Assembly: GCA_965222895.1 (NCBI GenBank)
Contig: CBDCVB010000002.1
Coordinates: forward strand, 1,005,608 to 1,069,607
Reading direction: 5' to 3'
Origin: Dehalococcoidia bacterium
GTDB taxonomy: Bacteria > Chloroflexota > Dehalococcoidia > Lucifugimonadales > UBA3495
DNA length: 64,000 bases
The notes under the pieces: model-generated
The model's database searches: none
What the model was told of the DNA's origin: nothing
The model's input: the letters and a program-made list of their open reading frames with translations, nothing else
Program-made: the position numbers and the translations under genes
Part shown: positions 13,535-61,930 of the stretch, piece by piece
How the letters are laid out: each line of letters starts with the position of its first letter
Position numbering within the stretch: the stretch's first letter is position 1

Positions 13535-13593
13535 AGAGGCAACCCTCCCCAAAACTTGGTACTGCATCCTACGGGTTTTACCAACTACAGCAC

Positions 13594-14585: not shown

Positions 14586-14624
14586 TGGTCGCGCTGGTGT
14601 ACACAGGTATGTAATTCCCCTAAT

Positions 14625-15518: not shown

Positions 15519-15618
15519 GAGATTGCTCCTCCTTCTCCCCGGTACGGCAGCCCGGCCTACTCAGAGAACCACGAACGGACTGGAATCTGCGGACGCTTAT
15601 GTAAACGGAAAGGGCCGG

Positions 15619-16524
15619 TTAGCCGCCCCGCCAAGGGTTGATCCCTGTGGTCTTCATCCGCATTCGGTAAACTGAGCTACGGGCGGTGAAGTACATGGTG
15701 CGGTAGTCAGAGTCACCCCAGGCGCAGTTGGCCGGAATCTCGGGCAACCGTATGATACCCACCAGGGAACCGTCAGGCTCAAAGACCCAAACTCCGCCCG
15801 CGCCGGTGCAGTATACCCGGCCGTCGGTATCAACCTTCATCCCATCGGGGACGCCGTCCTCCGCCGAGTGCATATTGGCGAACAGCCGACTATTGCTCAC
15901 CGAGCCATCTGGGGCCACGTCGTAGGCCCGCATGTACTGGTGGGTACAAACCTCCCCATGTTCTTTCTCCGCGGCGCATTCGTCGCCGCGGCGGGTGTTG
16001 TCGGCGTACAGGATAGTTTCGTCGGGAGAGAAGGCCAGGCCGTTGGGCGATTCCAGGTCGGTGACCACGGCGGATACCGTGCCGTCGGGGGCGATGCGGT
16101 GGATGCCGTGGAAGTCGATTTCCCGCTCTTCCGGGGGCAGGCGAAGGCCGGGGCTGGTGAAGTAGATGCTTCCGTCGGAGCGGCACACCACATCGTTGGG
16201 ACGGTGCAACCGCTTGCCCTCCCAACGGTCGGCGATTACGGTGATGGAGCCGTCGGGTTCCCAACGGGTCATCTGCCGGTCGTCCCCGTCGCACATTATG
16301 ATTCTGCCCTGGAGGTCGAAGGTCAGGCCGTTGGCGCCCCCACTGTTTCCCCGTATGACCTCTGGTTCGCCGCCGGGCGCCAGGCGATAGATGACGTTGA
16401 TGCGGTTGTTCACGAACAAAAGATAGCCGTCCGGGTGCCACAGTGGCCCCTCGGTAAACTCGAACCCGGTGGCCAGCCGTTCCGCCTCGGAGGATTCTAC
16501 GATTTGATCCAAATTATCGGGCAT
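15619..16524 (-). CDS. SMP-30/gluconolactonase/LRE family protein
   Basis: 301 aa with FTEGPLWHPDGYLLF, GANGLTFDLQGRIIMC, RPNDVVCRSDGSIYFT and PNGLAFSPDE. Confidence 0.85.
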   Translation of the reverse strand: MPDNLDQIVESSEAERLATGFEFTEGPLWHPDGYLLFVNNRINVIYRLAPGGEPEVIRGNSGGANGLTFDLQGRIIMCDGDDRQMTRWEPDGSITVIADRWEGKRLHRPNDVVCRSDGSIYFTSPGLRLPPEEREIDFHGIHRIAPDGTVSAVVTDLESPNGLAFSPDETILYADNTRRGDECAAEKEHGEVCTHQYMRAYDVAPDGSVSNSRLFANMHSAEDGVPDGMKVDTDGRVYCTGAGGVWVFEPDGSLVGIIRLPEIPANCAWGDSDYRTMYFTARSSVYRMRMKTTGINPWRGG

Positions 16525-16804
16525 AGTGGCCTCCTGATGCTGGTTAGTCGGAATCGTGGTGCTTCACCGATGGACTGATGGACGTCTCCCTCAGCCTTTC
16601 GGCGATTTGCCGGATGGCGTCGTACAAACGCCGGTGCAATTGCAACCTATGCAGTTCGTTGGCTCGTATCTGCCGCTGACTATATCATGCTGAACAAGCC
16701 GGAAGCCGTATAAACAACGGTCCGGCGAGACTGATGCTCACGAAGGACGACTCGGATATTTAGATCTCGGATGTCCAGGATGGCGGTTGCGGAATGGCGA
16801 GGTT

Positions 16805-17857
16805 CTATTGCCGGAACTTGGGCATCACTTCCTTGGCGAAAAGCTCCATTGAACGCAATACCCTGGAGTGCTCCATGCTGCCGAAGGACATGCTGGCGCC
16901 AAAGTACCCGATGCCGTGTTCGTCGCGTAACTTGGTGATTCGCTGCACACATTGCTCCGGCGTGCCAAAGTAAGCAGTAGTCTCCAGTTCCGATTCATAA
17001 GTGGCCGGTTCGACAGTGCGGGTTCGACGCCAGTGGTCCAGGTCCACATTGATTTCATCGCCGTGGGTCAAAGTGCGCCGATAACCACCCAGATCCCGTA
17101 CCCAGGTCAGAGACTGGCGCGGGTATTCCCGAGCTGTCAGTTCGTCTTCGTCCAGGTACACAAACCGGAAGTAGGGCATTTCCTCCAGGGGCAGATCCTT
17201 TCCGGCAGCAGCGCAACGTTCGGCATAAAGGGAAAACAGGCCCAGATTATCGGCCTCCGGGGTAGAAAAGCTGGTCAGGATGGGCAGGTCTCGCGATACG
17301 GCAACGTCCACACTGGCGGGGGTACGGGATACGGCCAGATACACCGGGGGATGGGGCCGTTGTACGGGTTTGGGAGCTATCGTAAGGTCTCTCACCTGAT
17401 AAAACTCGCCCTGAAAAGTGAAATCGTCCTCGGTCCACAACCCCAGGATAATGTCCAGGGCCTCCTGGGTTCGCGCGTCCCGGGTGTCAAAGTCGACATT
17501 GAAGTTGCCATATTCGTAATCTGCCGAACCGCGTCCAACCCCGAAGTCCAGCCGGCCGTGGCTTAGAACGTCCAGCATGGCGCTCTCTTCAGCCAGGAAA
17601 ATGGGGTTGTGGAAAGGCAGGACGCTGACGCCGGCCCCGATCCGAATCTTCTTCGTACGTGCCGCGATGTTGCAGAGCAGCGGCATCAGGGAAGGGCAGA
17701 TGCCGTACCGGCTGGAGTGATGCTCCGCAATCCAGATCGAATCAAAGCCCAACTCCTCGGCGTATTCAACCTGTTCCAGCATCTCACCAAAGATCCGGCT
17801 TTGAGCGCTGGTCTCCGGCTCCGTCCAGGAACCCAGCAAAAACAGGGCAAACTTCAT
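16805..17857 (-). CDS. LLM-class flavin-dependent oxidoreductase
   Basis: 350 aa with GFDSIWIAEHHSS and LDVLSHGRLDFGVGRGS. Confidence 0.85.
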   Translation of the reverse strand: MKFALFLLGSWTEPETSAQSRIFGEMLEQVEYAEELGFDSIWIAEHHSSRYGICPSLMPLLCNIAARTKKIRIGAGVSVLPFHNPIFLAEESAMLDVLSHGRLDFGVGRGSADYEYGNFNVDFDTRDARTQEALDIILGLWTEDDFTFQGEFYQVRDLTIAPKPVQRPHPPVYLAVSRTPASVDVAVSRDLPILTSFSTPEADNLGLFSLYAERCAAAGKDLPLEEMPYFRFVYLDEDELTAREYPRQSLTWVRDLGGYRRTLTHGDEINVDLDHWRRTRTVEPATYESELETTAYFGTPEQCVQRITKLRDEHGIGYFGASMSFGSMEHSRVLRSMELFAKEVMPKFRQ

Positions 17858-19141: not shown

Positions 19142-19372
19142 GGATGGGACGCGGCCCACTTGACTGACGAGGTGAAATCGGCCAGGCGTCATAATGCAAC
19201 TCCGTTCCAGGCGACCAGTTGGATCACTCTCGAAATGTAATTGGAATCGGGCCCTCTAGCAGCAGTTGCAGACGGAACGCAATGCAACCGCGCCAGTCCC
19301 CGCAGGGTTCTACCTGCAGGACGAGGATCCGTGTTCCATGTATGATCCGTCCGGACCGAACGCATCTAGTAC

Positions 19373-20527
19373 TCAATCAATCTTGGAATTGAAGGGATAT
19401 AGGCGATGCAGTTTGGCTCGGGCGTCCTGGGTGTTGAACCGCCAGTTGATGGTGGCCCTCGCCGCATTGCGCTCGGCCGCATAGGCGTTGATGGCTTGCT
19501 GTAGGGCAGTCTCGTCGGGATTACGCCCTTGGAGACAAGCCCGGGTCAACACGCTGAACTCGATCTCCGCCATCCCTTCGGCAAGCTCAGGACAGGATTG
19601 AGCCAACTGGCGTGCTTGGGCGTGTGGTGAAACTCGAGGCGCTTCACGATGCGCCGAGCTTCGGCGGCGTCGCAGGTCTCATAGAGGGAAGCCATGCGGT
19701 GCGTGTTCAAATTGTCCAGAACCACCCGCACCACCGGGGCATCGGGGTAAGCCTCATCCACCAGCCAGCGCATCCGGTGGGCACAGTCCTCCATAGTGCG
19801 GCGCTCGGTAATCGCCACGTGTCGCCAGCCCGCCAGGGGCTCGCAGGTCAGGAAGATGTTGCGCGTGCCGGCGCGGCGATATTCGTAATCCTGACGCCGC
19901 GGTTGTCCCGGTTGCACTGGGATGGGCGCCCTGGTGTCGGCCAGCAACTGGGTGGAAGTCTCATCGAAGCAGACCACCGGCCGGTCCGGGTCGTAGGGCT
20001 CAGCATACAAGTCCAGCACGTCCTCCATCGCCGCCACGAATTCGCCGCCTACTTTCGGGATGCACCACTGCTGCTTCCGCCACGGCTGGCGGACGTTTTT
20101 TGAGCCTCAACCGCACCGTCTCATGGGACAGGGACTCCACCAACCCCAACTCCACCACTCGGTCGGCCAGCAGCTGCAGGGTCCAGTGGTCGTGGCCAGC
20201 GGGCGCTGGGCTGCACGCCAGGGCAATCAGGTGGGCCTCGCCCTTGTCGTCCAGCTTGCGATACCGGTTGGCCTGGACCCGATCCTGCAACACGCCATCC
20301 AAACCTTCCTCAGCGTACCGCCTTTTGGCCCGGTACACCGTACCCTTGGACACGTCCAAAGCGGCCGCCACCTGAGGTGCGTTCCATCCCTCATCAACTT
20401 TAAGTAGAATGCGCGCCCGGGCGACGATACGAGCCAAACTTTTGCCGCTACGTAGCAGTCGGCTCAGTTGCTCCCGCTCCTCCGGCGTCAACCGTACTGC
20501 GTATTGCTCCAGGGCCATGTTTGCCAC
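19373..20527 (-). pseudogene. IS630 family transposase, three frames (A6 run plus 23-nt insertion)
   Basis: ORFs 20000-20527 (HTH), 19546-20037 (DDE core, VLDNLNTH) and 19373-19606 (MAEIEFSVL...). Confidence 0.85.
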
Positions 20528-20581
20528 ACCTCCCCACCATTCGATCTTGCGGTCAGCGTAGCATTTGTAGGCCTTTCACTA

Positions 20582-21690
20582 ACTGATGTTACGCAGCCTT
20601 GAGGAGTTGGAGTTCGTCAAAGGCCTGGCGAACCGCCTTGAGATATATCCGGGTTCGCAAGGCAAAATGATTCAGCTGGTGGGTCATACTGAGCCATTCC
20701 AAGCGACAGGCCGAGTAGATTGCCATGAAACAGTGGTTGCTTTGAGTTCGGACGGTCTTCCCCGGCGACTTGGCCAGCGCGGCGTTGCCCTTGAGCGTCT
20801 TGTGAAACGTCTCCACTTTCCACCTTTGTTGGTAGATCGTTCTAATGCTCTCGCCTTCACTGTCCAATTCGCTGCAAGCCAGATAGAGAGTCCCAGTGCT
20901 GCCGTCTTTGTTCTTAAAGATCTGGCGCAGCAGCAGGACCGGAAAGTCCAGTCCCCGCAGCCAGCCGCGCACTGGTTGACCTTCCGGCAGGTCCAGCGTG
21001 TCGATCCGGTGAAAGCTGCCCTGAAGTTTCGCTGCATGGCTCAATGCTGCTGTCCGGTTGGATTTGAGCGCGATAATGAACTCCTTGTTCAAGTCCTTGT
21101 GGCTGAAACTCAGGTTTTCTTTGGACGAAAACCAACTGTCGGCCAGCACATAGCGATACTCCAGCCGGTTCTGCTGACACACCTTGAGCATCCGGCGCAT
21201 CAGTTCGTTCTTGGAGACCGCGCTCCTGCGCTTGAGCCGACCGGTGTTCGCATCCTTGAACATATTGGGCTTGCGGATGATTTCGTAGGCCACTGGCAGC
21301 GTTATACTCTGCGCGTGGTAAACGCAGTTGAGGATGTTAATGCCCTTGATGGTTCGGTTCTTGCTGTGATCGAAGTGCCAGGTGACGATCTCGTTCTCGT
21401 CGGTATAGGGCTTTTCCTCAATGGTATCGTCAAATATCAGCGCGCCATTGGGCGGTTCGATCTTTCGCACCATGAGCTTGACCAGCTGCCAGAGGGTCCT
21501 GGAGTCGTAGCCCTCCTGGGACAGCAAGCGGGTTATCCGGTCATGGCTGACTTCCCCTTCCAGCATATTGGACAGGCCGGTGGCTGTCGCCGCCCCAAAG
21601 GAGCTCAGCAGGTAATCGCTATAGAGTTCGGTCAGTTCTTTATTCATGCTTCAAAGATAGCAGTTTCTGCAGCCGGTGCGTAAGGTCAGT
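20582..21690 (-). mobile_element. IS4/IS701-like insertion sequence (1109 bp) with 5-bp target duplication CACTA
   Basis: Inverted repeats are ACTGATGTTACGCAGCC and the reverse complement ACTGACCTTACGCACC. CACTA lies at 20577-20581 and 21691-21695. The uninterrupted paralogous site in IS630 copy B carries a single CACTA. Confidence 0.85.
20589..21647 (-). CDS. DDE transposase, IS4/IS701-like
   Basis: 352 aa with FDDTIEEK, YVLADSWFSS and the Y-2-R-3-E-6-K motif YQQRWKVETFHKTLK. Confidence 0.85.
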   Translation of the reverse strand: MNKELTELYSDYLLSSFGAATATGLSNMLEGEVSHDRITRLLSQEGYDSRTLWQLVKLMVRKIEPPNGALIFDDTIEEKPYTDENEIVTWHFDHSKNRTIKGINILNCVYHAQSITLPVAYEIIRKPNMFKDANTGRLKRRSAVSKNELMRRMLKVCQQNRLEYRYVLADSWFSSKENLSFSHKDLNKEFIIALKSNRTAALSHAAKLQGSFHRIDTLDLPEGQPVRGWLRGLDFPVLLLRQIFKNKDGSTGTLYLACSELDSEGESIRTIYQQRWKVETFHKTLKGNAALAKSPGKTVRTQSNHCFMAIYSACRLEWLSMTHQLNHFALRTRIYLKAVRQAFDELQLLKAA

Positions 21691-21729
21691 CACTAATATA
21701 ACTTACAATACTGATTTGAACCAGTACTA

Positions 21730-21890
21730 GTACTACAGCCGCACACCAAACACTAACTCGCTACTCTTAGCTTCGATCCATCACTGGATTTAGCCTTGCT
21801 CACTTAAGAGCAAAGCCAGTACGCCATAGCTGGACATTGCGATTTTCAATACCGCCCGACCCTCTGGGCGGTCATGTGCGACTGTAGTAC
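21730..21890. mobile_element. 161-bp IS630/Tc1-type MITE flanked by TA
   Basis: 15-bp inverted repeats are GTACTACAGCCGCAC (21730-21744) and GTGCGACTGTAGTAC (21876-21890). TA lies on both sides. Confidence 0.65.
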
Positions 21891-21892
21891 TA

Positions 21893-22338
21893 GTACTCGG
21901 TCAACATTGGAAAGGCAGATGAAGGATGAAACGGGCGATGGTTGCCACGCTGGCGGTCAAACAGCGGTGCGGTAGGTGCGGCATCCATGGTTGCGGAGAA
22001 ATATGCGGTACGGTTGTCGTCGGAAGATCGGGCCCAACTGGAACGGTTGATCCGTAGCGGTCAGCGCTCAGATCGGATCATCAATCGGGCGCGCATCCTG
22101 CTCAAGACTGACGACGGATGGAGCGCCTCACGGGTGGCCGCAGCCTTGGACACGTCGCCGCGCACGGTGTTCCGCACCAAACGCCGGTATTGGGAGGAGG
22201 GATTGGACGGCGTGCTGCACGACCATCCCCAAGCCAACCGGTATCGCAAGCTGGATGATCGGGGTGAAGCCATCTGATTGCCTTCGCGTGCAGCGACGCC
22301 CCCGAGGGCCATGAACACTGGACCCTGCGGTTGCTGGC
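21893..22338 (+). mobile_element. third, diverged IS630-family element (copy C), 5' fragment only
   Basis: Starts GTACTCGGTCAAC after a TA. It encodes MVAEKYAVRLSSEDRAQLERLIRSG...ANRYRKLDDRGEA, then frameshifts. It ends at 22338, where copy B is inserted. Confidence 0.75.
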
Positions 22339-22340
22339 TA

Positions 22341-23586
22341 GTACTGGTTCAGATCAGTATTGTAAGTTGTATTAGTGAAAGGCTTCCAAATGCTACGCTG
22401 ACCGCAAGATCGAATGGTGGGGAGGTGTGGCAAACATGGCCCTGGAACAATACGCGGTACAGTTGACGCCGGAGGAACGCGAGCGACTGAGCCGACTGAT
22501 ACGTAGCGGCAAAAGTTCGGCACGCATCGTTGCCCGAGCGCGCATCCTGCTCAAAGTAGTTGAGGGATGGACCGCACCACAGGTGGCGGCCGCTTTGGAC
22601 GTGTCCAAGGGTACGGTGTACCGCGCCAAACGACGGTACGCTGAGGAGGGATTGGCGGGAGTCATCCAGGATCGGGTCCAGGCCAACCGATACCGGAAGC
22701 TGGACGATCGGGGCGAGGCCCACCTGATTGCCCTGGCGTGTAGCCCAGCGCCCGCTGGCCACGACCACTGGACCTTGCAGCTGCTGGCCGACCGAGTGGT
22801 GGAGTTGGGGTTGGTGGAGTCCCTGTCCCATGAGACGGTGTGGTTGAGGCTCAAAAAAACGTCCCCCAGCCGTGGCGGAAGCAGCAGTGGTGCATCCCCA
22901 AGGCAGGGGGTGAATTCGTGGCGGCGATGGAGGACGTGCTGGACTTGTATGCTGAGCCCTACGACCCGGACCGGCCGGTGGTCTGCTTTGATGAGACTTC
23001 CACCCAGTTGCTGGCCGACACCAGGGCGCCCATCCCAGTGCAACCGGAACCACCGCGGCGTCAGGATTACGAATATCGCCGCGCCGGTACGGGCAACATC
23101 TTCCTGACCTGCGAACCCCTGGCGGGCTGGCGACACGTGGCGATTACCGAGCGCCGCACCATGGAAGACTTCGCCCACCAGATGCGCTGGCTGGTGGATG
23201 AGGCTTACCCCGATGCCCCAGTAGTGCGGGTGGTTCTGGACAATTTGAACACGCACCGCATGGCTTCCCTCTATGAGACCTTCCCCGCCGCCGAAGCCCG
23301 GCGCATCGTGAAGCGGCTGGAGTTTCACCACACACCCAAGCACGCCAGTTGGCTCAATCCTGTCCTGAGCTTGCCGAAGGGATGGCGGAGATCGAGTTCA
23401 GCGTGTTGACCCGGGCCTGTCTCCAGGGGCGTAATCCCGACGAGACTGCCCTACAGCTAGCCATCAACGCCTATGAGGCCGAGCGCAATGCGGCGGGGGC
23501 CACCATCAACTGGCGGTTCAACACCCAGGACGCCCGAGCCAAATTGCATCGCCTATATCCCTTCAATTCCAAGATTGATTGAGTAC
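22341..23586 (+). mobile_element. IS630-family element copy B (1246 bp), TA-flanked
   Basis: Starts GTACTGGTTCAGATCAG and ends ...GATTGAGTAC. TA lies at 22339-22340 and 23587-23588. Confidence 0.9.
22427..23582 (+). pseudogene. IS630 family transposase with an A7 -1 frameshift site and a 23-nt insertion before the catalytic-E motif
   Basis: ORFs 22427-23107, 22840-23409 and 23349-23582. LRLKK then -1 gives NVPQPWRKQQWCIP at CTCAAAAAAAC (22853-22859). SWLN and MAEIEFSVL are separated by 23 nt (23359-23381). Confidence 0.85.
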
Positions 23587-23606
23587 TAGTAGTGACACAT
23601 TACCAG

Positions 23607-24149: not shown

Positions 24150-24975
24150 TCTCACGCGTACCCACTTTGTCAAACCAAACCAATCTACTGTCATGGCGAC
24201 CAGCGCCCACCTCACTTGTCATTGCGAGGAGCGTAGCGACGTGGCAATCTCGTTGGGGTTGAGTACGCGTCGGTGAACCATCATTGCTGCGGCGACCATT
24301 GCTACGGTAACGAGATTGCCACGCTCTGCGCTCGCAATGACAAAAGTGGGTACGCGTGAGAACCAACCTACTGCTATTGCGAGGAGCGTAGCGACGTGGC
24401 AATCTCGTTGGGGTTGAGCACACGTTAGTGAACCATCATTGCTGCGGCGACCATTGCTACGGTAACGAGATTGCCACGCTGCGCTCGCAATGACAAAAGT
24501 GGGTACGCGTGATAAACCAACCTACTGCCATTGCGAGGAGCGTAGCGACGTGGCAATCACGTTGGGGTTGAGCACATGTTAGTGAACCATCATTGCTGCG
24601 GCGACTATTGCTACGGTAACGAGATTGCCACGCTGCGCTCGCAATGACAAAAGTGGGTACGCGTGATAAACCAACCCACTGCCATTACGAGGAGCGTAGC
24701 GACGTGGCAATCTCGTTGGGGTTGAGCATATGTTAGTGAACCATCATTGCTGCGGCGACCATTGCTACGGTAACGAGATTGCCACGCTGCGCTCGCAATG
24801 ACAAAAGTGGGTACGCGTGAGAACCAACCTACTGCCATTGCGAGGAGCGTAGCGACGTGGCAATCTCGTTGGGGTTGAGCACACGTTAGTGAACCATCAT
24901 TGCTGCGGCGACTATTGCTACGGTAACGAGATTGCCACGCTGCGCTCGCTATGACAAAAGTGGGTACGCACGAAA
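24150..24975. repeat. tandem array of 5 units (~154-bp period) of a composite palindromic repeat
   Basis: The CATTGCGAGG landmark recurs at 24220, 24375, 24529, 24683 and 24836. Each unit holds the arm CATTGCGAGGAGCGTAGCGACGTGGCAATCTCG, a ~57-nt loop, the arm CGAGATTGCCACGCTGCGCTCGCAATG, then the linker ACAAAAGTGGGTACGCGTGAGAACCAACCTACTGC. Confidence 0.9.
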
Positions 24976-26974: not shown

Positions 26975-27090
26975 TGTCATTGCGAGGAGCATAGCGACGC
27001 GGCAATCTCGATGACGTTGAACACGCGCCGGCGCACCGCCGTTGCTACGGCGACGAGATTGCCACGCTACGCTCGCGATGACAAAGTGGT
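26975..27090. repeat. single copy of the palindromic repeat family
   Basis: TGTCATTGCGAGGAGCATAGCGACGCGGCAATCTCG ... CGAGATTGCCACGCTACGCTCGCGATGACAAAGTGG. Confidence 0.85.
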
Positions 27091-44989: not shown

Positions 44990-45064
44990 TGGAGCCGATG
45001 AAGGGAATCGAACCCTTGACCTGCGGTTTACGAAACCGCTGCTCTACCGCTGAGCTACATCGGC
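44990..45064 (-). tRNA. tRNA-Thr (anticodon CGU)
   Basis: Hand-folded 75-nt cloverleaf: GCCGATG TA GCTC AGCGGTA GAGC A GCGGT TTCGTAA ACCGC AGGTC AAGGG TTCGATT CCCTT CATCGGC T CCA. Confidence 0.9.
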
Positions 45065-49610: not shown

Positions 49611-49743
49611 ATCAGACCAATCCTTAGGGCGAGACGAATCGGCGCGTGCTGTGCTGCCGTAACGCGCCACCGCAGGAAGTAAAGCACAGGCCCACCGGGC
49701 GGTCAAGAAAATACCCGCCTCGCAGTTACTCGACCCGCGTCGC

Positions 49744-49908
49744 TCACGCGTACCCGCTTTTGTCATTGCGAGCGCAGCGTGGCAATCTCGTTCCAGTGGC
49801 GATGGTAGTTCGCCGACGTGTGCTCAACCTCATCAAGATTGCCGCGTCGCTACGCTCTTCGCAATGACAGTAGGCCAGTTGGGTTTGACAAAGTGAGTAC
49901 GCGTAAGG
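49744..49908. repeat. full-length single copy of the palindromic repeat family (outer and inner arms)
   Basis: TCACGCGTACCCGCTTTTGTCATTGCGAGCGCAGCGTGGCAATCTCG ... AGATTGCCGCGTCGCTACGCTCTTCGCAATGACAG ... TGACAAAGTGAGTACGCGTAAGG. Confidence 0.85.
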
Positions 49909-50082
49909 ATTCACACGGACAGCGAATTCGCTGCTCTACTCGGTGGCAATCGACCGATTTCAAAAATGGCGGAAATTGGATTAGTTTTATAATTGACATA
50001 AAAATTATCGTTTCGCTACGCTTATGTAAATTTAGTAACGTCACACGAACCGCAACACGGTTCAGGTTATGGAAACAGTGAC

Positions 50083-51105
50083 ATGATCGGTTGGTGCGGA
50101 TACCGTGGAGGAGTCAACGTCGTAGTGGCGGTTCTGGTGGTTGGGGCTTTGCTGGCGATTGGAGTTCCAACCCATACCGCCGACAGCTTCCACGTTGATC
50201 CGTCGGCAGTCATCGGGTTTGAACTCTCGCAACCTTCCTCTGGATTCGCCGCCGCCGCCAACAGCGATGACACCGGTTTTCCGGAACAAGACGCGGGATT
50301 TTCAGCATACTACCAGGTCCCTGCCCCCGCAGATTCAACCGGCAACGCTACCACGTCGCCACGGCTCGACGTGATAGCAACTGCAATAGCGCTGGAGACG
50401 CCGCCGGCAGCGGAGGATCCAGTACGGGACGGCGCGGGAACCGTCGTCGATTTGGGCAGCAATTTCGCCATAGTAACGTTGCCGCTGCGCCCCGCACTCG
50501 ACCAACGGTTGCCTCCCACCAACGTGAATGTTTATTTCGACGATCAGGGATGGGTGGTAGCATACCTGCCGGCCGGACATCCGGCGGCGGCCATCTGGCG
50601 GTACAGTTCAGCGCACGCTGACAACGATGATGAATATGATTCCAACGCAGACCTAGCAAACAATCTCCTCGTCCTCGCCATCAACGCGACCTTGACCGCC
50701 GCTAAGGCAGACATCCCTAAAGTCACTTACTCCATGGTCGGTTACTACGATTGGCAAAATCCTGATTGTGATGCCTACGTGCTGTTCAGCAACACGGCTA
50801 AAGGGCGCGAATCCAATCCGGTGGGGTTCCTGGTCCCTTCCACCATCAAGGACTTGCACGCTTCGGGGGCGGTGCTAATCACCAGCCATACCGAGGGTGG
50901 CAGCGCCAGTTCCGCGGAGTTGCGAGTTGACGGGGAGGTAGAAGCAACCGCGCAAGCTGAGAAAACAATCCTGGCAACCACCAAATTCGACCTGAATCGC
51001 CCTGACGCCGTAGTGAGTCAGCATCAGATGTCGATCATAGTTACGGAAGAAAATATGACTGCGGCCGGCGTCGTAATGCTGCTGTATAACAAGCCCGGAT
51101 CCTGA
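50083..51105 (+). CDS. secreted or membrane-anchored hypothetical protein upstream of the giant CARDB gene
   Basis: 340 aa with an N-terminal hydrophobic segment VNVVVAVLVVGALLAIGV. There is a 27-nt gap to the next gene. Confidence 0.55.
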   Translation: MIGWCGYRGGVNVVVAVLVVGALLAIGVPTHTADSFHVDPSAVIGFELSQPSSGFAAAANSDDTGFPEQDAGFSAYYQVPAPADSTGNATTSPRLDVIATAIALETPPAAEDPVRDGAGTVVDLGSNFAIVTLPLRPALDQRLPPTNVNVYFDDQGWVVAYLPAGHPAAAIWRYSSAHADNDDEYDSNADLANNLLVLAINATLTAAKADIPKVTYSMVGYYDWQNPDCDAYVLFSNTAKGRESNPVGFLVPSTIKDLHASGAVLITSHTEGGSASSAELRVDGEVEATAQAEKTILATTKFDLNRPDAVVSQHQMSIIVTEENMTAAGVVMLLYNKPGS

Positions 51106-54100
51106 TTCCGACACTATACGGCGACAAATACCATGACCGCATTGGCTCTCCGATCGGCCAAACTGCAGGTATTAATCGCAGTTGCCGGTATAGCAGTCGC
51201 CAGCATCGTGGTTGCCGATTACTACGCGCTGGCTCCAGTAGCATCGGGGTCGAATGAACCTGTGCAACACGAACATCGCACACACGAGATGGTTGCTGCC
51301 CAAGATGACTGTATCGACGATGTGAGCATTGCGAACTGGGGCCCAATCGATTCGAGTTTCCAAGGTGTTAAAGACCCGCCGGACTATTCAGGCGATGACG
51401 AAATCTGGATTTACTACGACCTCGAAAACTACAGCTGCCAGGAAGTCGAAGTTATGGTGGAAGTTCGGGGTTCGCAGACCGGGGCTATTATCCGCAACTC
51501 GGACGACACTCTGGCGGATTGCGTGTCAGGATGCGAAGTTCCGGCTCGGAACAACAACGGAGCAGGCTATTACGGCGGCAGCATGAAGTGGGACTTGGCT
51601 AATCATTCCGCAGTTAATGGAGAGTACGTAGTTATCACGGTAACGATTACCGGGCCGGCTGATTTCACCGATTCGGATTTGTCGAACAACACCAGGACAT
51701 CAGAAGATTTCATCAATGTCATGTCTGATGAGCCGGCTGTCCCCGAGGTGGACGTTGCCCTCACCGTGGTAACCCTTTCGCATACAAATGCTCCCATCGG
51801 AACGACCATAGAATTCTCGGCAACGGTGGCCAACAATGGCACAGCAGCCGTTGCGCCAACCCTGGCGCTATTCACTGCTGATGGCGATACTGCGGTGGCT
51901 TCGATCAACATTGATGCGATTGAGCCCGGCAAACCCCGCTCTGTCGATTTGCGCTGGGACACCACCGGGGCAGTGGCCGGAATCTTCAAACCGCGTGTAG
52001 TCCTAACCGCAGCCGATGATGCCTCGGCTGATGACAACGAATGGTCGGCATCCATCACGCTGCGCAATGCAATTGTCGATGTGAGGCTGGAGTCAGTTGC
52101 CCCAACCGCAGTCACGGCGCCGGCGGGAGAATCGGTTGGATTCGCCGTTACCGCTTCCAACCGCGGCGATTTTGCTGCTGTCCCGATGGTTGAGTTGTAC
52201 ATCGAAGATGGACTGGTTCCGGTAGTTTCTGTTCCCATGGCATCAATTGCACCGGGCAATGAGGGAACAGTGAAACTGACCTGGGACACCACAGCAATGG
52301 CGGCCGGCGCCTACCAACTCATGGTCTCGGTCAGGCCGGATGCGGCCACTGCGGAGCCAACGGACAGCCTGCACGTGGCCGCGGTCTTATACGACCCCGT
52401 GGATGTGGCCGTGACATCTGCGGTAGTGGCGAACCCGCCGGCCATCGCGGGTAAATCGGTAACCGTCCGGGCGACGGTGGAGAACCTCAGCGAAAACGAC
52501 GCCGAGAATATTGCCGTGGCGATGACAATTCGAGGTGAAACAGAGCCGGCAGAAACCCGAATCATTGCGTCGCTGCCCGCCGGAAACTCGACTGTGCTGG
52601 ACCTGGTTTGGGATACCACCGGTCGCGTCCCAGCCCAATATGATCCGCGGGTGGTAGCCACCACGAAATGGGACACTGACGATTCAAACGACAGTCGGTC
52701 TGTCAGCATCATCCTGCGCAACTGGGCAACGATGACCGAGGCCAGCACCCGCAACGCAACCGGCGTCATTGGCGACACCATCCAGCTATTCGCTCACGTG
52801 CTGAATCACGGGCCATCTGCCCTGAAAAATCTGACCGTCGGTCTGTATAAGTCCGACGGCACTGCGCTGGCGACCACCACCGTATCAAGCATCGACGCCG
52901 GCGACACGGAAGTTGCAACCCTGAACTGGGACACCACCGGGCAAGATGCAGGAATCCACCAGGAGCTGCAAGTATCGGTCGATTCGCCGGATTTTTCCAG
53001 TGATGTTGACGACACCACTCTGGTAACCGTGGCGTTGAACAACGAGATTGCCCTGAGCAACGTGTGGCAATCCCCCGACGATGCCGTGATTGGCCGGTCG
53101 GTGGCGGTCGTCGCTGAACTGGTCAATCAAAGCAACCATGCGGTGGCCCTGACGACGGTTCTATTACTTGGGTACGAATTCGATGTGATTGCGAAATCCT
53201 ATAACGAGATTGAGATTACCACCGCAACGGTTGCAAACCTGGCGTCCGGCGCATCGCAGCAGGTATCGCTGGGTTGGGACAGCTCGGGGAGCACTGCCGG
53301 GACTCACCGGTTTCGCGTGAAGGTAGTGGTGCCCGAGCGCGGCGGCGACGCAAACGATGAACGGCCCATCACCGTAACCCTGCGCCACCCGGTGGTTGAT
53401 GTTGCCCTGACCCGTGCCCAATCTTCCCACAACATCGCCGTCATCGGGCAGAGCATTACCATCGCGGCCACGGTCGCCAACAATGGTGAAGCCCCGCGGT
53501 CCGTGCCGGTGTCGCTATTCGTTGATCCCCCCACAAAGCCAGGCAGCACGCCCACGCCCACCCCCAGGGTCGTTATCAACACTCCGGTCATCCAACCCGG
53601 CGTCAGCGAAACCGTTGACCTGATTTGGGACACCGCTGGGCTGAATGGGATCGGCGAATATCCTCTGAAGGTAGTGGTCGAGGTTCCCGGAGACGTTAGC
53701 GACGACAACAACGAAATAACTCTCGTTGCCGAGCTGATTCACTCCGCTTTTCAGCCGGACAGTTCCGTCCGTGAGTGCGTTGACGATGTGGGCGTTGAGT
53801 TGGCCGGCATTCACGACCATGTAGATGTGATGCATCTCAACACTCCGCCCATCTATTTGCGCGAGGATACGCTCGTCATTGCTTACCGAATCTTCAACTA
53901 CAGTTGCGATAAGGACGTTACTGCCGGGCTAACCCTCACCGGATCGGTGAGCGAAACTGCAATTAATGACCGGATTGACCCGTGCCTATCGGGGTGCCCC
54001 ATACCGGCGGGCGGTATGGTCAACCGTTTCGTCAGGTGGCAGCTTCTCGACCATCCGGTGGTAATAGGGGAGATAGTCAATGCACAGGTTTCGGTAATAT

Positions 54101-56783
54101 CGCCAGCAGGGTTTGCAGAATCCGACGCAACGAACAACGCCCATTCGTCCAGCGAGGCAATCACCGTCGGGGACTTGTCGGACGTTCACGTGCAATTCAG
54201 TAAGAATGACGCGCGCCGTGCCCGTGTTGCCGGCGCATTGCTGCTTGCAGCGTTCGACCCGGATTACCCCGCAACTTCTCCAGCGGACCAGGGCGCTCAA
54301 ATCGCCGGTTTCGTGGTTGTCCCTGGCGATTTGGTGATTGGATCGTCCGTCATAATTCACGCCTACGTGTTGAATCGGGGCGACGTTGCAACCGCGATAC
54401 CGGTGGCTCTGCACGTTGACGACGATAGCGCCCCCGTTTACGAAGGACGAACCGGAACTCTGGGGCCAGGCGAATTCCAGCGATTGAAACTCTGGTGGCC
54501 CATACCGGCGGACCTGGCCGTCGGAAGCCACCAGTTGACGGTGTCGGTGCCTGATCCCGACTTGGCGGCTGCCACCGGCGCCAAGAAGAGCAAAACCGTG
54601 GTGGTGCGGCAACCGGAGCTCGAGGTCAATATCGTGGACGTATCTGCTCCGGTGCAGGCATTGGCTGGCGATAACATCACGGTAAACGTGGCAGTACGGA
54701 ACACTGGTCAAACCGGCCTCAAGGTGCAGGTGGAGTTGTTCGTTGCCGCCGGCAATGCTCCGGTCAATAAGGTAACGACGGAGCCGATTGAACCCGGCGC
54801 AACCGGCACGGCAACATTGGTGTGGGACAGCCCGATTGGTGTGCCAGCGGGAGCATATCTGCTGCGAGTGCGCGCCGGCGGCAGTGAACGGTCGCAGACC
54901 ATTACCCTGCGCCAACCCACCACCGCCATATTGGCCACCGGCATCACCGCATCGCCAACCGTTATCATCCTGGGTCAACAGGATCAGGTTGCAGTGAGCG
55001 CCAAATTGAAAAATGCCGGCGAGGCCGTTGTTGACGTTGTGGCAACTCTCAGTTTAGACGGCGTACAGGTTCCGGGCGCAACGGTCTCCTCAATGCGCGT
55101 ATTGCCCGGCAAAACCCGTGACATCACCCTGACGTGGCACATCCCTCCCAATGCGGAGTTGCGCACCTACGACCTGCAAGTCGTGGCTTCCGTGCCGGAC
55201 GTTCCTGATGCCGTGGCTACGTTCGACATCATCGCCGTAACGGTTCGCGAGCCATACACGGACGCGGAACTTCTCTCAGCAGTAGCAACGCCATCCCCGG
55301 CCTATGTTGGTGAACCTGTATCGGTTGATGTTACTGTCCTCAATCCCGAAAACAGCGCTTCCAATATCCTGTTATCGCTTGAATTCCCCGGGGAATCTCG
55401 ACAGGACGAGCGTTGGAACCCGCGCGTCCGCCCACACCAATCAGTCTCACGCCGGATTGAATGGCGCACGGGCGACCTGGCTCCGGGTACGTACACCTTC
55501 CGCGCTGCGGCGGAAATCGCTGGCCGCACCATCACTGCGGCCACAAATATCACGTTGCAAGTGGACGCCGAGATACTCTCCATAACATCCAATCCCGCCG
55601 CTACCGCGATGCAAGGGCAGCCGGTCACAATTCTGGTTCAAGTTCGCAACAACGGCAGAGCCGCTATCAATGTGCCGGTCGAACTCAATTTTCCATCCCC
55701 AGACAAAACGCCCGAACGACGGTCGCCGCGCGTTGATGCCGGGGGACAGGCAACGGCGGCCTTCGTGTGGAAGACCGGCAATTATCCGGTCGGTGTACAT
55801 ACGTTACGGGCTGAATTGGTCGCTGCGGACAACCATACCGCCGGGAAAACCACCGCGGACGTGCAAGTTGAACTGACGGCTGCGCCCCTGGTAGCCACAA
55901 TCACCAGCGTCCGGTCAACTCCGGATGCGCCAATGGTGGGAACCCCGGTCGAAATCATGGTTGCTGTCCGCAACGATGGGCCGGTGGCCGTGTACGTTCC
56001 CGTTACCCTGCACTACCCGTCTGCCGACAAGCAGCCGGCAACGCGTCGCCCACGCGTCGCCTCCGGTGAAACCACGATTGCGACGTTCAAGTGGCTTACC
56101 GGCAACCACCGGCCCGGCACTCATTCTTTCCGAGTGATGATAGGCAGTGATGAAAGCGCTGAGCGGGTTTTTGAGTTAACGCTGCTGTCCCCGCCGGTGG
56201 ACGCTGAGATACTCTCCATAACGTCCAATCCCGCCGATACCGCGATCCAAGGGCAGCCGGTCACAATTCTGGTTCAAGTTCGCAACAACGGCAGCGCCGC
56301 TATCAATGTGCCCGTCGAACTCAGTTTTCCGTCCCCAGACAAAACGCCCGAACGACAGTCGCCGCGCGCCGATGCCGGGGGACAGGCAACGGCGGCCTTC
56401 GTGTGGAAGACCGGCAATTATCCGGTTGGCACACATATGTTACAGGCTGCATTGGTCGGTGCGGACAACCATACCGCCGGGAAAACCACCGCTGACGTGC
56501 AAATCGAACTGACGGCTGCACCCTTGACGGCCACAATTACGAACGTCCGGTCAACTCCAGCTGCGCCAATGGTGGGAACCCCGGTTGAAATCATGGTTGC
56601 CGTCCGCAACGACGGGCCGGTGGCTGTCAACGTTCCGGTTACCCTGCACTACCCGTCTGCCGACAAACTACCGGAAACGCGTCACCCACGCACCGCCCCA
56701 GGTGAATCGGGGTTAGCGACGTTCGAGTGGCGGACCAGTCGTTATGCACCGGGAACCCACTCCTTCAGAGCCGTCATACCCAA

Positions 56784-58239
56784 TCTCGACTTTGTACAAA
56801 AGCTAGATAAATTATAAGAACAGGGTAAGCTCGACCAAATCACCACAAGAGGTCGAGTATGCCTACCCTGCCCGCAGTCATAGTAACCCTGCTGCTGCCC
56901 TTTGAGCACCTGTTTGACCCCAGGACCTGGCGCAAAGCCCAACTCCTGGCCATGGGAGCGATCCTGTCTCCCGGCAAACGCACCGTGTCCTCCGCCCTCA
57001 ACATCCTGGGGATTGGGCAGCACGGCGACTTCGCCGTCTATCACCACGTGCTCAACCGCGCCCGATGGTCGCCACTGCAACTGAGCCGGGCGCTGTTGCT
57101 GCTGGTGGCCGGGCGCCTTGGTTCGTCCACCGAGCCGTTGGTGTTCGGCATTGACGAGACGGTGGAGCGACGCTGGGGCCGGAAGATTGCGGCCAAGGGG
57201 TGGTATCGGGATCCGGTGCGGTCCAAGGACGACCAGGTGGTGATGACCCCCGGATTGCAATGGGTGAGCCTGATGTTGCTGACGCGTATCGGGTGGGCGG
57301 GTCGATACTGGGCGCTGCCGTTTTTGACCGCGCTGGTGGTGTCGGCCCGCTACGACCGGCGCAAAGGCCGCCGGCACAAGACGGTAACCGACTACGCCCA
57401 GCAGATGCTGGTCTGCCTGCGCCGTTGGCTGCCGGAGAGGGACCTGGTGGTGGTGGCCGATGGCGGCTACGCCAAGCGCGAGTTCCTGCGGCATTGCCAG
57501 AGTATGTCAAAGCCGATTGTCGTCGTCACCAAACTGCGCAAGGACGCGTCCCTGTACCAGCCCGCGCCAGCGCGGCGGCCCGGCCAGATCGGGCGGCCCC
57601 GGGTGGTCGGCGCGCGACTGCCCAGTCCCACGGCGGTGCTGGACGATCCCGCTACACAATGGATTCCCTACCGCGCCACCGGTTCCGACGGCAGTACCGC
57701 CATGGTCGAGCTCGCTTCGGGCGTAGCGCTGTGGTACCACGGCGGGCCGCCGCGCCTTCCCATACGTTGGGTCGTCATCAGATACCTGGCGGAGCGCCGC
57801 GGGCCCTATGCTTTACTATGCACCGACACCGAGGCGGAACCCCTGCGGATACTGCAGTGGTATCTGCTGCGGTGGCAGGTCGAGGTGACCTTTGAGGAGC
57901 TGCGGGCTCACCTGGGCATGGAAACCCAGCGCCAGTGGTCGGAACGAGCCATCGCCCGAACCACCCCCGCGCTCTTTGGCCTGTTCAGCGTGGTGACGCT
58001 GGCCGCGGATATCCTGATCGAACAGCGTGGCGCCATGGCGCCGCGCACCGCGGCGTGGTATGACAAAACCAGCCCTTCCTTCGCCGACGCCATCGCCATG
58101 GTCAGACGACACCTCTGGGTGCAGCAGGGAACTTTTATGCCGTCCGAGCGCGAGCACGAATCGATAAAAGTCCCGCGCCTCTTGTACCACAGGATGCTCG
58201 ACACGCTAGCCTATGCCGCTTGATTGTACAAAGCCGAGA
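56784..58239 (+). mobile_element. IS4/IS701-like insertion sequence (1456 bp) with 5-bp target duplication CCCAA
   Basis: Inverted repeats are TCTCGACTTTGTACAA (56784-56799) and TTGTACAAAGCCGAGA (58224-58239). CCCAA lies at 56779-56783 and 58240-58244. Confidence 0.85.
56859..58223 (+). CDS. DDE transposase, IS701/IS4-like
   Basis: 454 aa with FGIDETVERRWG, VVVADGGYAK and YLLRWQVEVTFEELR (Y-2-R-3-E-6-R). Confidence 0.8.
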   Translation: MPTLPAVIVTLLLPFEHLFDPRTWRKAQLLAMGAILSPGKRTVSSALNILGIGQHGDFAVYHHVLNRARWSPLQLSRALLLLVAGRLGSSTEPLVFGIDETVERRWGRKIAAKGWYRDPVRSKDDQVVMTPGLQWVSLMLLTRIGWAGRYWALPFLTALVVSARYDRRKGRRHKTVTDYAQQMLVCLRRWLPERDLVVVADGGYAKREFLRHCQSMSKPIVVVTKLRKDASLYQPAPARRPGQIGRPRVVGARLPSPTAVLDDPATQWIPYRATGSDGSTAMVELASGVALWYHGGPPRLPIRWVVIRYLAERRGPYALLCTDTEAEPLRILQWYLLRWQVEVTFEELRAHLGMETQRQWSERAIARTTPALFGLFSVVTLAADILIEQRGAMAPRTAAWYDKTSPSFADAIAMVRRHLWVQQGTFMPSEREHESIKVPRLLYHRMLDTLAYAA

Positions 58240-59011
58240 CCCAATCAGAGTCCCAAGAAACCCCCGTTGGCGTTACTGGTTTTCGACGTGGTTCTGCTCC
58301 CGCCACTCGCAGACTTCGCGGTGGGCAACATCACCGTCCCAGATATCGGTCGCCCATTCGTGCAAGGCGAATGGATTCCGGTAGCGGCCCTAGTGCGTAA
58401 TCTCGGCCCGTCTCCGGGACGCGGGACATTGACATTGAAAGACGCGACTGACGGTACCCATCGGGCGAACATGTACGAGCGCTCAATATCCCTGGAACCG
58501 GGCGAATCCCGTTGGGTGGAATTCACCTGGAAATCGTTGCGCTACGATCCGGGTGAGCGCCACCTGCGTATGGTAGCGGACGGGCATTACGATCCAACCC
58601 GCCACAACAACCGCAGCCAGCTGGCGACCGTAGCGCTGCTTCCGAACAAGGACATCATCATCGGTTTCGGCGACGATTCCGCCGATGCCCTTGTCTTCAA
58701 AGACGCCAGACCACCCGCCCTGCAAACCACCGGAGATGCCCTCGACCAGATTGTGGCATTGGACACCGGCGCATACCAAGCTCTACGCCTCGCTGTTCCG
58801 GAAATCAGTTCGCCAATGCTCGCCGCCCACAATCCGGTCTCAGGTCGGGATTTCGCAGCTACCGCCCAAGTTGTCATGGCAATGCATCGTTTGCATCGAG
58901 CCGCTTACCGGTCGGCACGCCATTGCTCTGACTTGCAACGTCGCCTGGGCAACAGCCACCCGAGGGCCGTTTTGTGTCCTGCCGCGCCGGCCTTGTTGCG
59001 TTGAACCTTTG

Positions 59012-61930
59012 CTATACGACGGCGTCCCGCAGCACCTCGACCAGATGGCGAGCGCGGCGGCCGGTGCCGTGTTCGACCTGTTGGCGACAGGAAACACCCA
59101 TCACCGCCACTTCCCAATCCGGTTTGGCTTCGATGGCGGGGAAGAGCGAAAGCCTGCCAATCTGCATCGATATATCGTAGTGCTCCCTCTCGAAGCCGAA
59201 CGACCCAGCCATCCCGCAGCAACCGGCGTTGATTAATTCCACCTCGTAGCCAGGCGGCATTGCGAGCGCTGACAGCGAGTTGGCAGTGCCGACCATCGCC
59301 TTTTGATGACAGTGCCCGTGGAACAGCACCCGCTTGGTCAGATCGGAAAAGTCCAGATCCAGCCGGTTCTCGGCCTGGGCATTGGCCAGGAATTCGTCGA
59401 TCAAGAACGAATTATCTGCCACCAGTTTGGCCTCTGCGCCGGGGATGAAATCCGGATATTCGTCGCGGAGCGTCAGCAGGCAACTGGGTTCACAGCCGAT
59501 GATGGGCACTCCTCGGTTGGCGAGGGCCACCAGCGGAGCCATGTTTTCGCGGGCTTGCTGACGCGCCTGATCCAGCAAACCCTTGGAAATCATGGGCCGA
59601 CCGCAACACCCGCCGTTGACCAGCTCTACGCCATATCCCCCGGCTTCCAGCAACTCCACGGCGGCGATGCCAATTTCCGGGTAGTTGTAATTCATAAAGG
59701 TATCATTGTAGAGGGCCACGGTGCCGTATTTCGCCGGCGCCGTATCCTTGCGTTGGCGCTGGGCAAACCATTCCGGGAGCGCCTGTCGCGCGAATGGCGG
59801 CTGCTTCCGTTGCCCGCTGATACCCAGCATGGCAGACGCCAACCGCCGGCCAATTCCGGTGCCGGCCAGCCAGTTGGTCACTGGCGCATAGCGGCTGCCC
59901 AGCTTGTTCAGGCTGTTGATATTCGCAAACACCCGCGACCGCAGCGGCACTCCGTGTTTCTGGTGATAGTGATTCAGAAACTCGTACTTCAGCTTGGCCA
60001 TGTCCACACCGGACTCGCACTCCGCCTTGCACGCCTTGCATTCGAGGCATAAATCCAGCGCCTGATGCAGCCGCTGGTCGGTGATCGACCCCTCGGCGCC
60101 TTCCGGCATACGTCCCGACAGCGCCGCCCGCAGGAGGTTGGCGCGTCCGCGGGTGGAATGCTCCTCGTCTCGCGTCGCCATGAACGACGGGCACATCGTC
60201 CCGTCCAGCTTGCGACACGCCCCCATGCCATTGCACATTTCAACCGCGCCTGAATAACCAAAGTCCGACGTGAAATCCAGCGTGGTTTCCAGCGCCATCG
60301 GTTGGTAGGTTGGCCCGTAGCGCAAATTCTCAGTCATCGGTGGCGTGTCGATAATCTTGCCGGGATTCATTATGTCTTTGGGATCCCAGGTATGCTTCAG
60401 TTCACGGAACGCGTTGTAGATTTGGTCTCCAAACATCTTGCGGGTCCAGACGCCGCGCACGATGCCGTCTCCGTGTTCGCCGCTCATGGAGCCGCCAAAC
60501 TCCTTGATCAGGTCGGACACCGCGTCGCCGATGGATACCATCTTGTCCACGCCATCCTGGCTCTTGAGGCTGATCATGGGGCGGATGTGGAGACAGCCCA
60601 CGGCGGCGTGGCCGTAGTAACCGGCGGTAGTTCCGTGGTCGCTGACAATCTCGTCGAACCGGCGCACGAAGTCGCCCATTACTGATGGGTCAACGGCTGG
60701 GTCTTCCACGAAGGGAATGGGTTTGGCGTCCCCGCGTATGCTCATCAGCAGGCCCAGACCTCCCTTCCGGACATTCCAGACGGCTGCCTGGCCGGCCTGA
60801 TCAGAAATGTTGGCGCAAGCGTAGGCCAACCCGATATCGGACTCGAGGGCGTCCATCTTGGCCCGCAACTCGGCGTCCGATTCCCCGTAGAACTCGACAA
60901 TCAGCATCGCCCCTGGGTCGCCTTCAATGAAGGACAACAGTCGCGACTGGCCCAACGCTTCGCGACACCGGTCCAGCACCATTTTGTCAATCATCTCAAC
61001 CGATGATGGATCGTGTTGGAGCACGCGCATGGTGGCTTCGCTGGCGTCGAAAACGCTGCGGAAGTGCAGCACTGACAACGCGGTCATGGTGGGCCGCTGC
61101 ACCAGGTTGACCTTGGCCTCAGTTACCACGCACAGCGTGCCTTCCGAACCCACCACCATCCGTGCCAGGTTCACCGGGCCGTTGTTTCGTTCGTCGCCCA
61201 GAATGAATTCGTCCAGGTTGTACCCGCTCACCCGGCGCTGAATCTTGGCATAGGTGCGGTCAATCTCCTCCTTCTGCTCGCGGGCAATGCGCAGCACGCC
61301 CCGGTAGATGTCGCCCTCCAGCCCGCCGCCGCTGAGCCGGGCTTCCAGTTCGGATGCGCTCAAAGCCCCAAAGTGGGCGGAAGAACCGTCCGAAAGAATG
61401 ACGTCCAGTTCCCGGATGTGGTCCAGGGTCTTGCCGTAGATGACCGAGTGCGCGCCGCAGGTGTTGTTGCCGATGCCGCCGCCGACGCAAGCCCGGTTGG
61501 CTGTGGTTGGGTCAGGGGCGTACTGTAGGCCGTGGGCAGCCACCTGCCTGGTCAACTGCTCCAGGATGATGCCGGGCTCAACCCGCGCCCACTGTTCCTC
61601 GGCGTTGACCTCCAGCACCTTGTTGAGATACTTGCTGAAGTCCATCACTATGGCGTGGTTGACGGTCTGGCCGGCCAGGCTGGTTCCTCCGGAACGCGGC
61701 AGCACGGGGATGCCTTCCGTCGCGGCAAACTCCACCACCGCCTGCACGTCCTCAACGGTACGCGGAATGACTACGCCGATGGGCTCCATCTGGTAGATAC
61801 TGGCATCGGTGCTGTAGAGCAGGCGGGTGTACGGGTCAAAGCGCACCTCGCCGGCCACGCGCCGCTCCAGTTCGTCGGCAATGTCCTGGCGTTCCTTGCC
61901 CCGGATCCTGCGCTGCGTTGCCGTCACCAT
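59012..61930 (-). CDS. FAD-linked oxidase fused to an Fe-S/CCG-domain oxidoreductase (GlcD-GlcF-type, D-lactate/glycolate dehydrogenase-like)
   Basis: 972 aa with an FAD-binding PCMH domain (PRSGGTSLAGQ). Ferredoxin-type CxxCxxC motifs are LCLECKACKAEC and MCNGMGACRK. C-terminal CCG repeats are present. Confidence 0.85.
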   Translation of the reverse strand: MVTATQRRIRGKERQDIADELERRVAGEVRFDPYTRLLYSTDASIYQMEPIGVVIPRTVEDVQAVVEFAATEGIPVLPRSGGTSLAGQTVNHAIVMDFSKYLNKVLEVNAEEQWARVEPGIILEQLTRQVAAHGLQYAPDPTTANRACVGGGIGNNTCGAHSVIYGKTLDHIRELDVILSDGSSAHFGALSASELEARLSGGGLEGDIYRGVLRIAREQKEEIDRTYAKIQRRVSGYNLDEFILGDERNNGPVNLARMVVGSEGTLCVVTEAKVNLVQRPTMTALSVLHFRSVFDASEATMRVLQHDPSSVEMIDKMVLDRCREALGQSRLLSFIEGDPGAMLIVEFYGESDAELRAKMDALESDIGLAYACANISDQAGQAAVWNVRKGGLGLLMSIRGDAKPIPFVEDPAVDPSVMGDFVRRFDEIVSDHGTTAGYYGHAAVGCLHIRPMISLKSQDGVDKMVSIGDAVSDLIKEFGGSMSGEHGDGIVRGVWTRKMFGDQIYNAFRELKHTWDPKDIMNPGKIIDTPPMTENLRYGPTYQPMALETTLDFTSDFGYSGAVEMCNGMGACRKLDGTMCPSFMATRDEEHSTRGRANLLRAALSGRMPEGAEGSITDQRLHQALDLCLECKACKAECESGVDMAKLKYEFLNHYHQKHGVPLRSRVFANINSLNKLGSRYAPVTNWLAGTGIGRRLASAMLGISGQRKQPPFARQALPEWFAQRQRKDTAPAKYGTVALYNDTFMNYNYPEIGIAAVELLEAGGYGVELVNGGCCGRPMISKGLLDQARQQARENMAPLVALANRGVPIIGCEPSCLLTLRDEYPDFIPGAEAKLVADNSFLIDEFLANAQAENRLDLDFSDLTKRVLFHGHCHQKAMVGTANSLSALAMPPGYEVELINAGCCGMAGSFGFEREHYDISMQIGRLSLFPAIEAKPDWEVAVMGVSCRQQVEHGTGRRARHLVEVLRDAVV

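Follow-up and report, generated by a model that had tools for sequence, protein, structure and literature searches.

Very likely transposition of an IS701-family insertion sequence into the gene for a 2136-residue CARDB-repeat protein, probably of the cell envelope, in an uncultured Dehalococcoidia bacterium

The sequence analysed here, referred to as the window, is a 64,000-nucleotide (nt) stretch of contig CBDCVB010000002.1 from a Dehalococcoidia bacterium, an uncultured organism known from metagenome-assembled genomes only. The window carries two open reading frames (ORFs), 51133-56817 and 58213-59004, that, read from the sequence, are the two halves of one gene interrupted by one insertion sequence of the IS701 family. 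We hold it very likely (probability about 0.9) that one element of this high-copy type transposed into a 6411-nt gene for a CARDB-repeat envelope protein of 2136 amino acids (aa). The event is a real gene disruption and a mechanistically ordinary one, in a genome full of insertion sequences. For annotation, the two ORFs are to be merged as one interrupted gene.

The upstream ORF encodes 1894 aa and ends within the element (…RAVIPN-LDFVQKLDKL-stop), as the first-pass annotation of this DNA had described; both the ORF listing and direct reading of the sequence gave the same end. The native 5' part of the gene, 51133-56784 on the forward strand, comprises codons 1-1884, which cover the putative anchor, cysteine module 1, repeats 1-6, cysteine module 2 and repeats 7-14. 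The frame then continues to 56817 and adds 10 element-encoded residues (LDFVQKLDKL), leaving a product of 1884 native and 10 foreign residues that is without repeat 15 and the tail. The first base of the element directly follows the complete codon of Asn1884, and the insertion point falls in the linker that joins repeat 14 to repeat 15. The downstream ORF encodes 263 aa and begins with an ATG that the right end of the element contributes (ORF listing). Behind the element and in frame with this ATG lie the remaining 252 codons: the native 3' part, 58246-59004 on the forward strand, comprises codons 1885-2136 and the stop codon, and encodes repeat 15, a linker predicted to be disordered and a tail with two cysteines. 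It had been claimed that removal of the element restores the frame exactly. When 56784-58239 and one CCCAA were excised computationally, the result was a 6411-nt frame of 2136 codons whose only stop is the terminal one, and the claim held.

The limits of the element had been given as 56784-58239, with 16-bp inverted repeats and a CCCAA duplication. An element and a perfect duplication were indeed present, but comparison with 76 other copies corrected the details. The termini were set at 56785 and 58238 (1454 bp, forward strand), and the terminal inverted repeats were 15 bp long with 14 of 15 positions matching, at 56785-56799 (CTCGACTTTGTACAA) and 58224-58238 (reverse complement CTCGGCTTTGTACAA). 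The end motif TCTCGRCTTTGTACAA had only two occurrences in the 64-kb window, inverted with respect to each other, where 0.05 were expected by chance. From reading of the sequence and comparison of the element copies, the target-site duplication was 7 bp and not 5 bp long, with ACCCAAT as the left copy at 56778-56784 and as the right copy at 58239-58245. The excision arithmetic is the same with the corrected boundaries (1454+7 = 1456+5). The element contains an intact transposase gene for 454 aa, 56859-58223 on the forward strand.

Orthologues of the gene bore out the claim of one split gene. A protein search returned P0035 (2132 aa), which was uninterrupted and 94% identical to the reconstructed protein end to end, and P0001 (2119 aa), which was also uninterrupted and matched 98% of the query at 88% identity. 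Both span the junction as …FRVVIPNQSPSEPPLALLVF… (…VIPNQSP…). The empty site was seen in DNA at two syntenic loci, L083 and L002, where the gene is continuous across the junction and the target heptamer is present once (ACCCAGT in L083). The window, L002 and L083 have the same gene order: a 2-hydroxyacid dehydrogenase gene (reverse strand), a 340-aa gene (forward), the giant gene (forward) and a gene for an FAD-oxidase/CCG protein (reverse). The protein cluster of P0001 holds, in addition to P0035, the proteins P0036 (1894 aa, identical to the window ORF product) and P0034 (263 aa, the product of the 3' ORF), and this split allele is recorded on a 2.4-Mb contig. Over the tail, the 3' fragment was 96-98% identical to the intact orthologues. 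A 28-mer common to the filled and the empty alleles had no match in the JGI (Joint Genome Institute) metagenomes, and a profile scan of these metagenomes returned only two loci of the family, both distant.

The gene varies considerably between genomes. Orthologues range from 1235 aa to approx. 3470 aa with the same end modules, and the repeat number varies strongly. The approx. 3470-aa orthologue (positions 7001-17411 of locus L083, from OZ253455.1), in which the repeat number has expanded very strongly, was called as two ORFs of 1969 and 1502 aa with an 8-nt overlap; this split may reflect a real frameshift or an error of long-read sequencing in the repeat region. The giant gene is also a mosaic. 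In the first 200 aa the identity to P0001 was only 27-48%, against approx. 90% or more in most of the remaining protein, and the first 400 aa were 100% identical to P0035. By this pattern of identities, codons 1-200 (window 51133-51750; putative signal/anchor and first cysteine module) are an allelic replacement, which shows intragenic recombination.

Judged by its transposase, the element is a true IS701-family insertion sequence. The transposase matched Pfam DDE_5 (7e-33) and reached 318.4 bits against the NCBIfam model NF049999 ('transpos_IS701_3'; cut-off 170), aligned over model positions 3-398 of 412. With the older IS701 model NF033540 the score was 62.9 bits and thus below the cut-off of 150, and because of this we assign the element to a distinct IS701 subgroup. 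Target duplications of classical IS701 members are typically 4-5 bp long, and the 7-bp duplication of the window lies outside this range. Since the transposase passes the cut-off of NF049999, we consider that the duplication length marks a variant subgroup and does not exclude the element from IS701. A literature search on the duplication length of IS701 elements found nothing relevant to the locus. The element resembles the family (e.g. IS701, ISAba11, ISDge5) in its single DDE transposase ORF, its size of approx. 1.45 kb, its short terminal inverted repeats, its direct target duplications, its multi-copy expansion and the disruption of a gene by insertion. It differs in that the duplications are variable and mostly 7-9 bp long, in contrast to the 4-5 bp of classical members, and in that many copies lie inside palindromic repeats resembling repetitive extragenic palindromic (REP) sequences. 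For the IS701 member ISDge5, active gene-disrupting transposition has been described (PMC8944449).

Relatives of the transposase were sought in one genome per species. This gave 428 loci, confirmed by tblastn and all in metagenome-assembled genomes of Dehalococcoidia, of which 79 were fetched for comparison. One related genome, CAXXPD01, contained more than 50 copies of the element. The 76 other copies compared had the conserved termini CTCGAC…GCCGAG, and the bases just outside of these varied. Element copies from different genomes were 94-98% identical, and the best copy for the window element (L020) had 98.3% nucleotide identity to it. A clear duplication was found in 37 copies including the one in the window, and in the 36 others it spanned 6-10 bp; lengths of 7, 8 and 9 bp were found in 12, 12 and 11 copies, respectively, with the window copy counted. 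In approx. one third of the copies the flanks did not match and no duplication was seen, which suggests later rearrangement or recombination between copies.

Many copies (flanks L003-L081) entered REP-like palindromes at one and the same point, and the loop of the palindrome is duplicated there. Two such sites read CCATATATCCGG-TTCTGCGT-CGGACAGTGAAA and TCAACTGTCGGGG-TTCAA-CCCCGACAGTTGA. Insertions into the loop in related genomes are exemplified by TCCG-GTTCTGCGT-CGGA and GTCGGGG-TTCAA-CCCCGAC. The insertion site in the window is coding DNA and formed no hairpin (-0.3 kcal/mol). Targeting of hairpin loops as a general rule was rejected, as the 37 empty sites that were reconstructed did not fold with lower energy than control segments in a crude test. 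From the flanks compared, only a repeated use of particular REP-like families stands, with no absolute preference. Among known elements, IS1397 and ISKpn1 of the IS3 family are REP-targeting insertion sequences. The present element is similar to these in that many of its copies lie in the loops of short palindromic repeats and duplicate the loop, but it has a transposase of another family, its REP preference is not absolute and its copy in the window lies in coding DNA. The locus documents a massive expansion of an IS701-subgroup element in long-read Dehalococcoidia genomes, with duplications of 7-9 bp and frequent REP-like insertion.

The first-pass annotation had described the interrupted protein as an array of CARDB domains, and the whole protein matched Pfam CARDB (PF07705) with 221.5 bits (cut-off 22.7, E = 1.4e-66). 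With a self-built hidden Markov model (HMM), 15 repeat units of approx. 75 core residues each were found, all with E ≤ 1e-20, six at aa 220-853 and nine at aa 1068-1999. When the units were scored singly against Pfam CARDB, eight of the 15 reached 22.7 bits, six scored 14-20 bits and unit 7 had no match. Repeats 11-12 and 13-14 form a recent internal tandem duplication of a 636-nt two-repeat unit (55561-56731, forward strand; approx. 90-93% identical). A further CARDB-like domain proposed for the 3' ORF corresponds to repeat 15 (aa 1922-1999). It was found both as a unit of the self-built HMM and as a seven-stranded beta-sandwich in the AlphaFold model, with a predicted local distance difference test score (pLDDT) of 72-88 for the block; the Ig-like fold was modelled for repeat 15 alone.

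Outside the repeats, the family architecture is conserved, with the tail as the C-terminal end and cysteine modules near aa 50 and aa 860. The two cysteine modules (aa 57-200 and aa 872-1012, approx. 140 aa each) were 33% identical to each other, each with four invariant cysteines, and profile-profile comparison by hhalign gave a probability of 6% for a relation to the CARDB units. All family members share the conserved final 137 aa, always as the very end of the protein. In the tail 14 positions are invariant, including both cysteines, with the motifs C-x16-C, PR and CPxAP; the conserved tail of 30 residues reads …HCxxLQxxxGNxxPRAVxCPxAPALxR. A search with the tail profile against 1.84 billion cluster representatives found 37 proteins only, and the full-length matches were all at the protein C-terminus. 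Approx. 130 aa at the C-terminus had previously been left unassigned. They had no family match, and the AlphaFold model of the 3' fragment had low confidence for approx. 70 residues after repeat 15 and for a short helical hairpin. According to this model, the C-terminus is predicted to be mostly a disordered linker followed by a short conserved helical tail with two cysteines, and to contain no globular domain.

One hydrophobic segment was found at the N-terminus (aa 8-38, Kyte-Doolittle 2.26), with Arg and Lys before it. The protein is acidic in composition and has exactly 10 cysteines (4+4+2). No LPXTG motif was found in the protein, and no surface-layer homology (SLH) domain or other recognised wall-anchor family was among its Pfam matches. 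We infer that the protein would form a long fibre or stalk on the cell surface, with its N-terminus fixed in the membrane. It is similar to CARDB tandem-repeat or 'fibrillar adhesin-like' proteins of bacteria and archaea in its long array of Ig-like beta-sandwich repeats of approx. 100 aa, its putative N-terminal export/anchor segment, its acidic composition and a repeat number that varies between strains. In contrast to these it has no recognised adhesive tip, LPXTG or SLH, and its family has two four-cysteine modules, a two-cysteine tail and an obligatory upstream partner. A literature search on CARDB in Dehalococcoidia found nothing relevant to the locus.

The upstream partner is the 340-aa gene mentioned above (50083-51105, forward strand), which encodes an N-terminal hydrophobic helix and whose stop codon lies 28 nt before the start of the giant gene. 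At five other loci it also immediately precedes the giant gene: L001, L002, L082 (two paralogues), L083 and L085. The 116 clusters of homologues contained none that was annotated or had a Pfam domain. The AlphaFold model of the partner was confident and two-domain (pLDDT 81.6, predicted template modelling score 0.81), and a Foldseek search against the PDB gave only weak partial matches of its C-terminal half, to jelly-roll domains of the carbohydrate-binding CBM6/CBM36 and the C1q types. The locus points to an uncharacterised and narrowly distributed family of envelope proteins with a conserved partner, in a class of bacteria with a poorly understood envelope.

A second orthologue appears to be broken at the same place. 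P0005 at locus L001 belongs to a different species and is 76% identical; its homology ends at …CATACCCAAT|C, at most 1 nt from the left junction in the window (positions 10820-10900 of locus L001, from ena:ERZ21829562:ctg257610l). Beyond the breakpoint, the DNA of L001 is unrelated and carries elements of IS1380-like and IS630-like type and a gene for an M10-like peptidase. Within 6 kb of the breakpoint neither an IS701 copy nor the 3' part of the gene was found, and the FAD-oxidase gene was missing as well. An element end was sought at the breakpoint itself and not found. The native context of the downstream peptidase gene was also sought and could not be established, the comparison locus having its own IS5-like insertion there. 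A hot spot followed by an element-mediated deletion, a mis-assembly or chance are all possible explanations of this shared breakpoint.

We propose that the conserved tail and the cysteine modules carry a specific function, perhaps together with the co-conserved 340-aa partner. If the tail is needed in this way, a loss-of-function or altered-function allele would be the most likely outcome of the insertion. The insertion is probably recent, since no damage is seen in either half of the gene, in the transposase, or in the inverted repeats and the duplication; this is plausible but gives no date.

Several points weigh against this interpretation of the locus. The placement of the element and the allele itself are known from assembled sequence and not from reads, and recency is argued solely from the lack of damage. 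Duplications of 7-9 bp differ from the 4-5 bp of classical IS701 members. The cysteine modules, the tail and the 340-aa partner had no match in Pfam or NCBIfam, and a segment from cysteine module 1 through the second CARDB repeat had no sequence relative in the PDB. The pLDDT fell below 50 at residues 137-209 and 236-253 of the modelled 3' fragment, which lie in the tail region. Surface location, mode of anchoring and role of the tail are all things that we infer.

Other explanations of the split gene were also considered. Mis-joined repeat copies could have misplaced the element in the assembly while the real gene is intact. The element is highly repetitive in the lineage (428 related loci, more than 50 copies in one genome), and the third of the copies in related assemblies that have no duplication means that rearranged or mis-joined copies exist. 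A chimeric join would however create no target duplication, whereas here a perfect 7-bp direct duplication surrounds the element, of the same length class as in 36 other copies. In addition, the sequence left of the element continues in that on its right exactly as in an uninterrupted orthologue, and the same split (P0036 and P0034) is recorded on the 2.4-Mb contig. We concluded that an assembly artefact is very improbable. It is unlikely, though less remote, that the insertion is ancient and fixed, and that the gene is a functionless pseudogene decaying in the lineage. The 6411 nt of the two halves contain no interruption, and an intact allele aligns with them along the whole length at 94%. 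In the tail, the 3' fragment has kept 96-98% identity to intact orthologues. The transposase ORF has its full length and the two copies of the duplication are the same, and these observations argue against a long period of decay. Such a period would fit the L001 orthologue, with its truncation at this very site and a further break of the frame in its 5' part, and the L083 orthologue, split by a frameshift into ORFs of 1969 and 1502 aa. The element also differs at 25 or more nucleotides from the nearest available copy, but this copy is that of another genome.

The truncated form could also be selected or functional. Loss of the tail might be advantageous, for example in escape from a phage or predator that makes use of it, or both pieces might be made, with the 263-aa ORF translated from the ATG supplied by the element. 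As the break separates two codons within a linker between domains, a product of 1894 aa could fold; the right end of the element provides the in-frame ATG at 58213; the homology of an independent orthologue ends at the same nucleotide; and the allelic replacement of the N-terminal 200 aa (27-48% identity to P0001) hints at diversifying pressure. An in-frame ATG is however expected in approx. one of three cases by chance, and the 14 positions of the tail that are invariant throughout the family speak for its being needed. A scan of 49700-59300 for sigma-70-like promoters found none, although such a scan is uninformative for this phylum. Taken together, we regard a selected or functional truncation as quite unlikely, and prefer the reading of an ordinary and probably recent transposition into the giant gene.

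A more far-reaching interpretation is that the giant protein, its two-cysteine tail and the 340-aa membrane protein constitute a new envelope system restricted to a lineage of soil-type Dehalococcoidia, and that the linker after repeat 14 is a hot spot of breakage or insertion. In such a system, for example, a surface-layer-like fibre would be docked by its tail to the jelly-roll domain of the partner. Loss of the tail through mobile elements would recur in independent lineages (the window and L001) and would act as a crude on/off variation of the cell surface. We consider this interpretation tentative and, as a whole, unlikely. If the tail and the partner were a docking pair, or the shared breakpoint a true hot spot, the locus would open a way to study how the cell surface varies in uncultured Chloroflexota.

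Downstream of the giant gene and convergent with it lies a gene for a 972-aa fusion of FAD-linked oxidase, Fe-S and CCG domains (59012-61930, reverse strand), identified by its Pfam matches. It served as a synteny marker and lies outside the proposed system. The same gene is found downstream of the giant gene in L002, L082, L083, L084 and L085, with 83-97% amino-acid identity, and is absent from L001.

Several other repeats were observed in the window. A 1208-nt direct repeat is present at 1-1207 and 11176-12382 (93% identical) and overlaps an IS66-family transposase ORF (10938-12329, reverse strand). The window starts within another copy, and is as a whole rich in insertion sequences. Two inverted repeats of 1218 nt, at 19366-20582 and 22372-23589, are 94% identical and carry an IS630-like helix-turn-helix ORF. 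Between them lies a second, different DDE_5 transposase ORF (20589-21647, reverse strand), and the region 19366-23589 looks like nested or composite insertion sequences. At 24220-24969 a tandem array contains 4.9 copies of a 154-nt unit (95% matches), which is a long palindrome (CATTGCGAGGAGCGTAGCGACGTGGCAATCTCG…CGAGATTGCCACGCTGCGCTCGCAATG); a solo copy of 80 nt, 83% identical, lies 2 kb away at 26975-27054, and Rfam gave no match in this region. The sole Rfam or ARAGORN match in the window was a tRNA-Thr (CGT) at 44990-45064 on the reverse strand.

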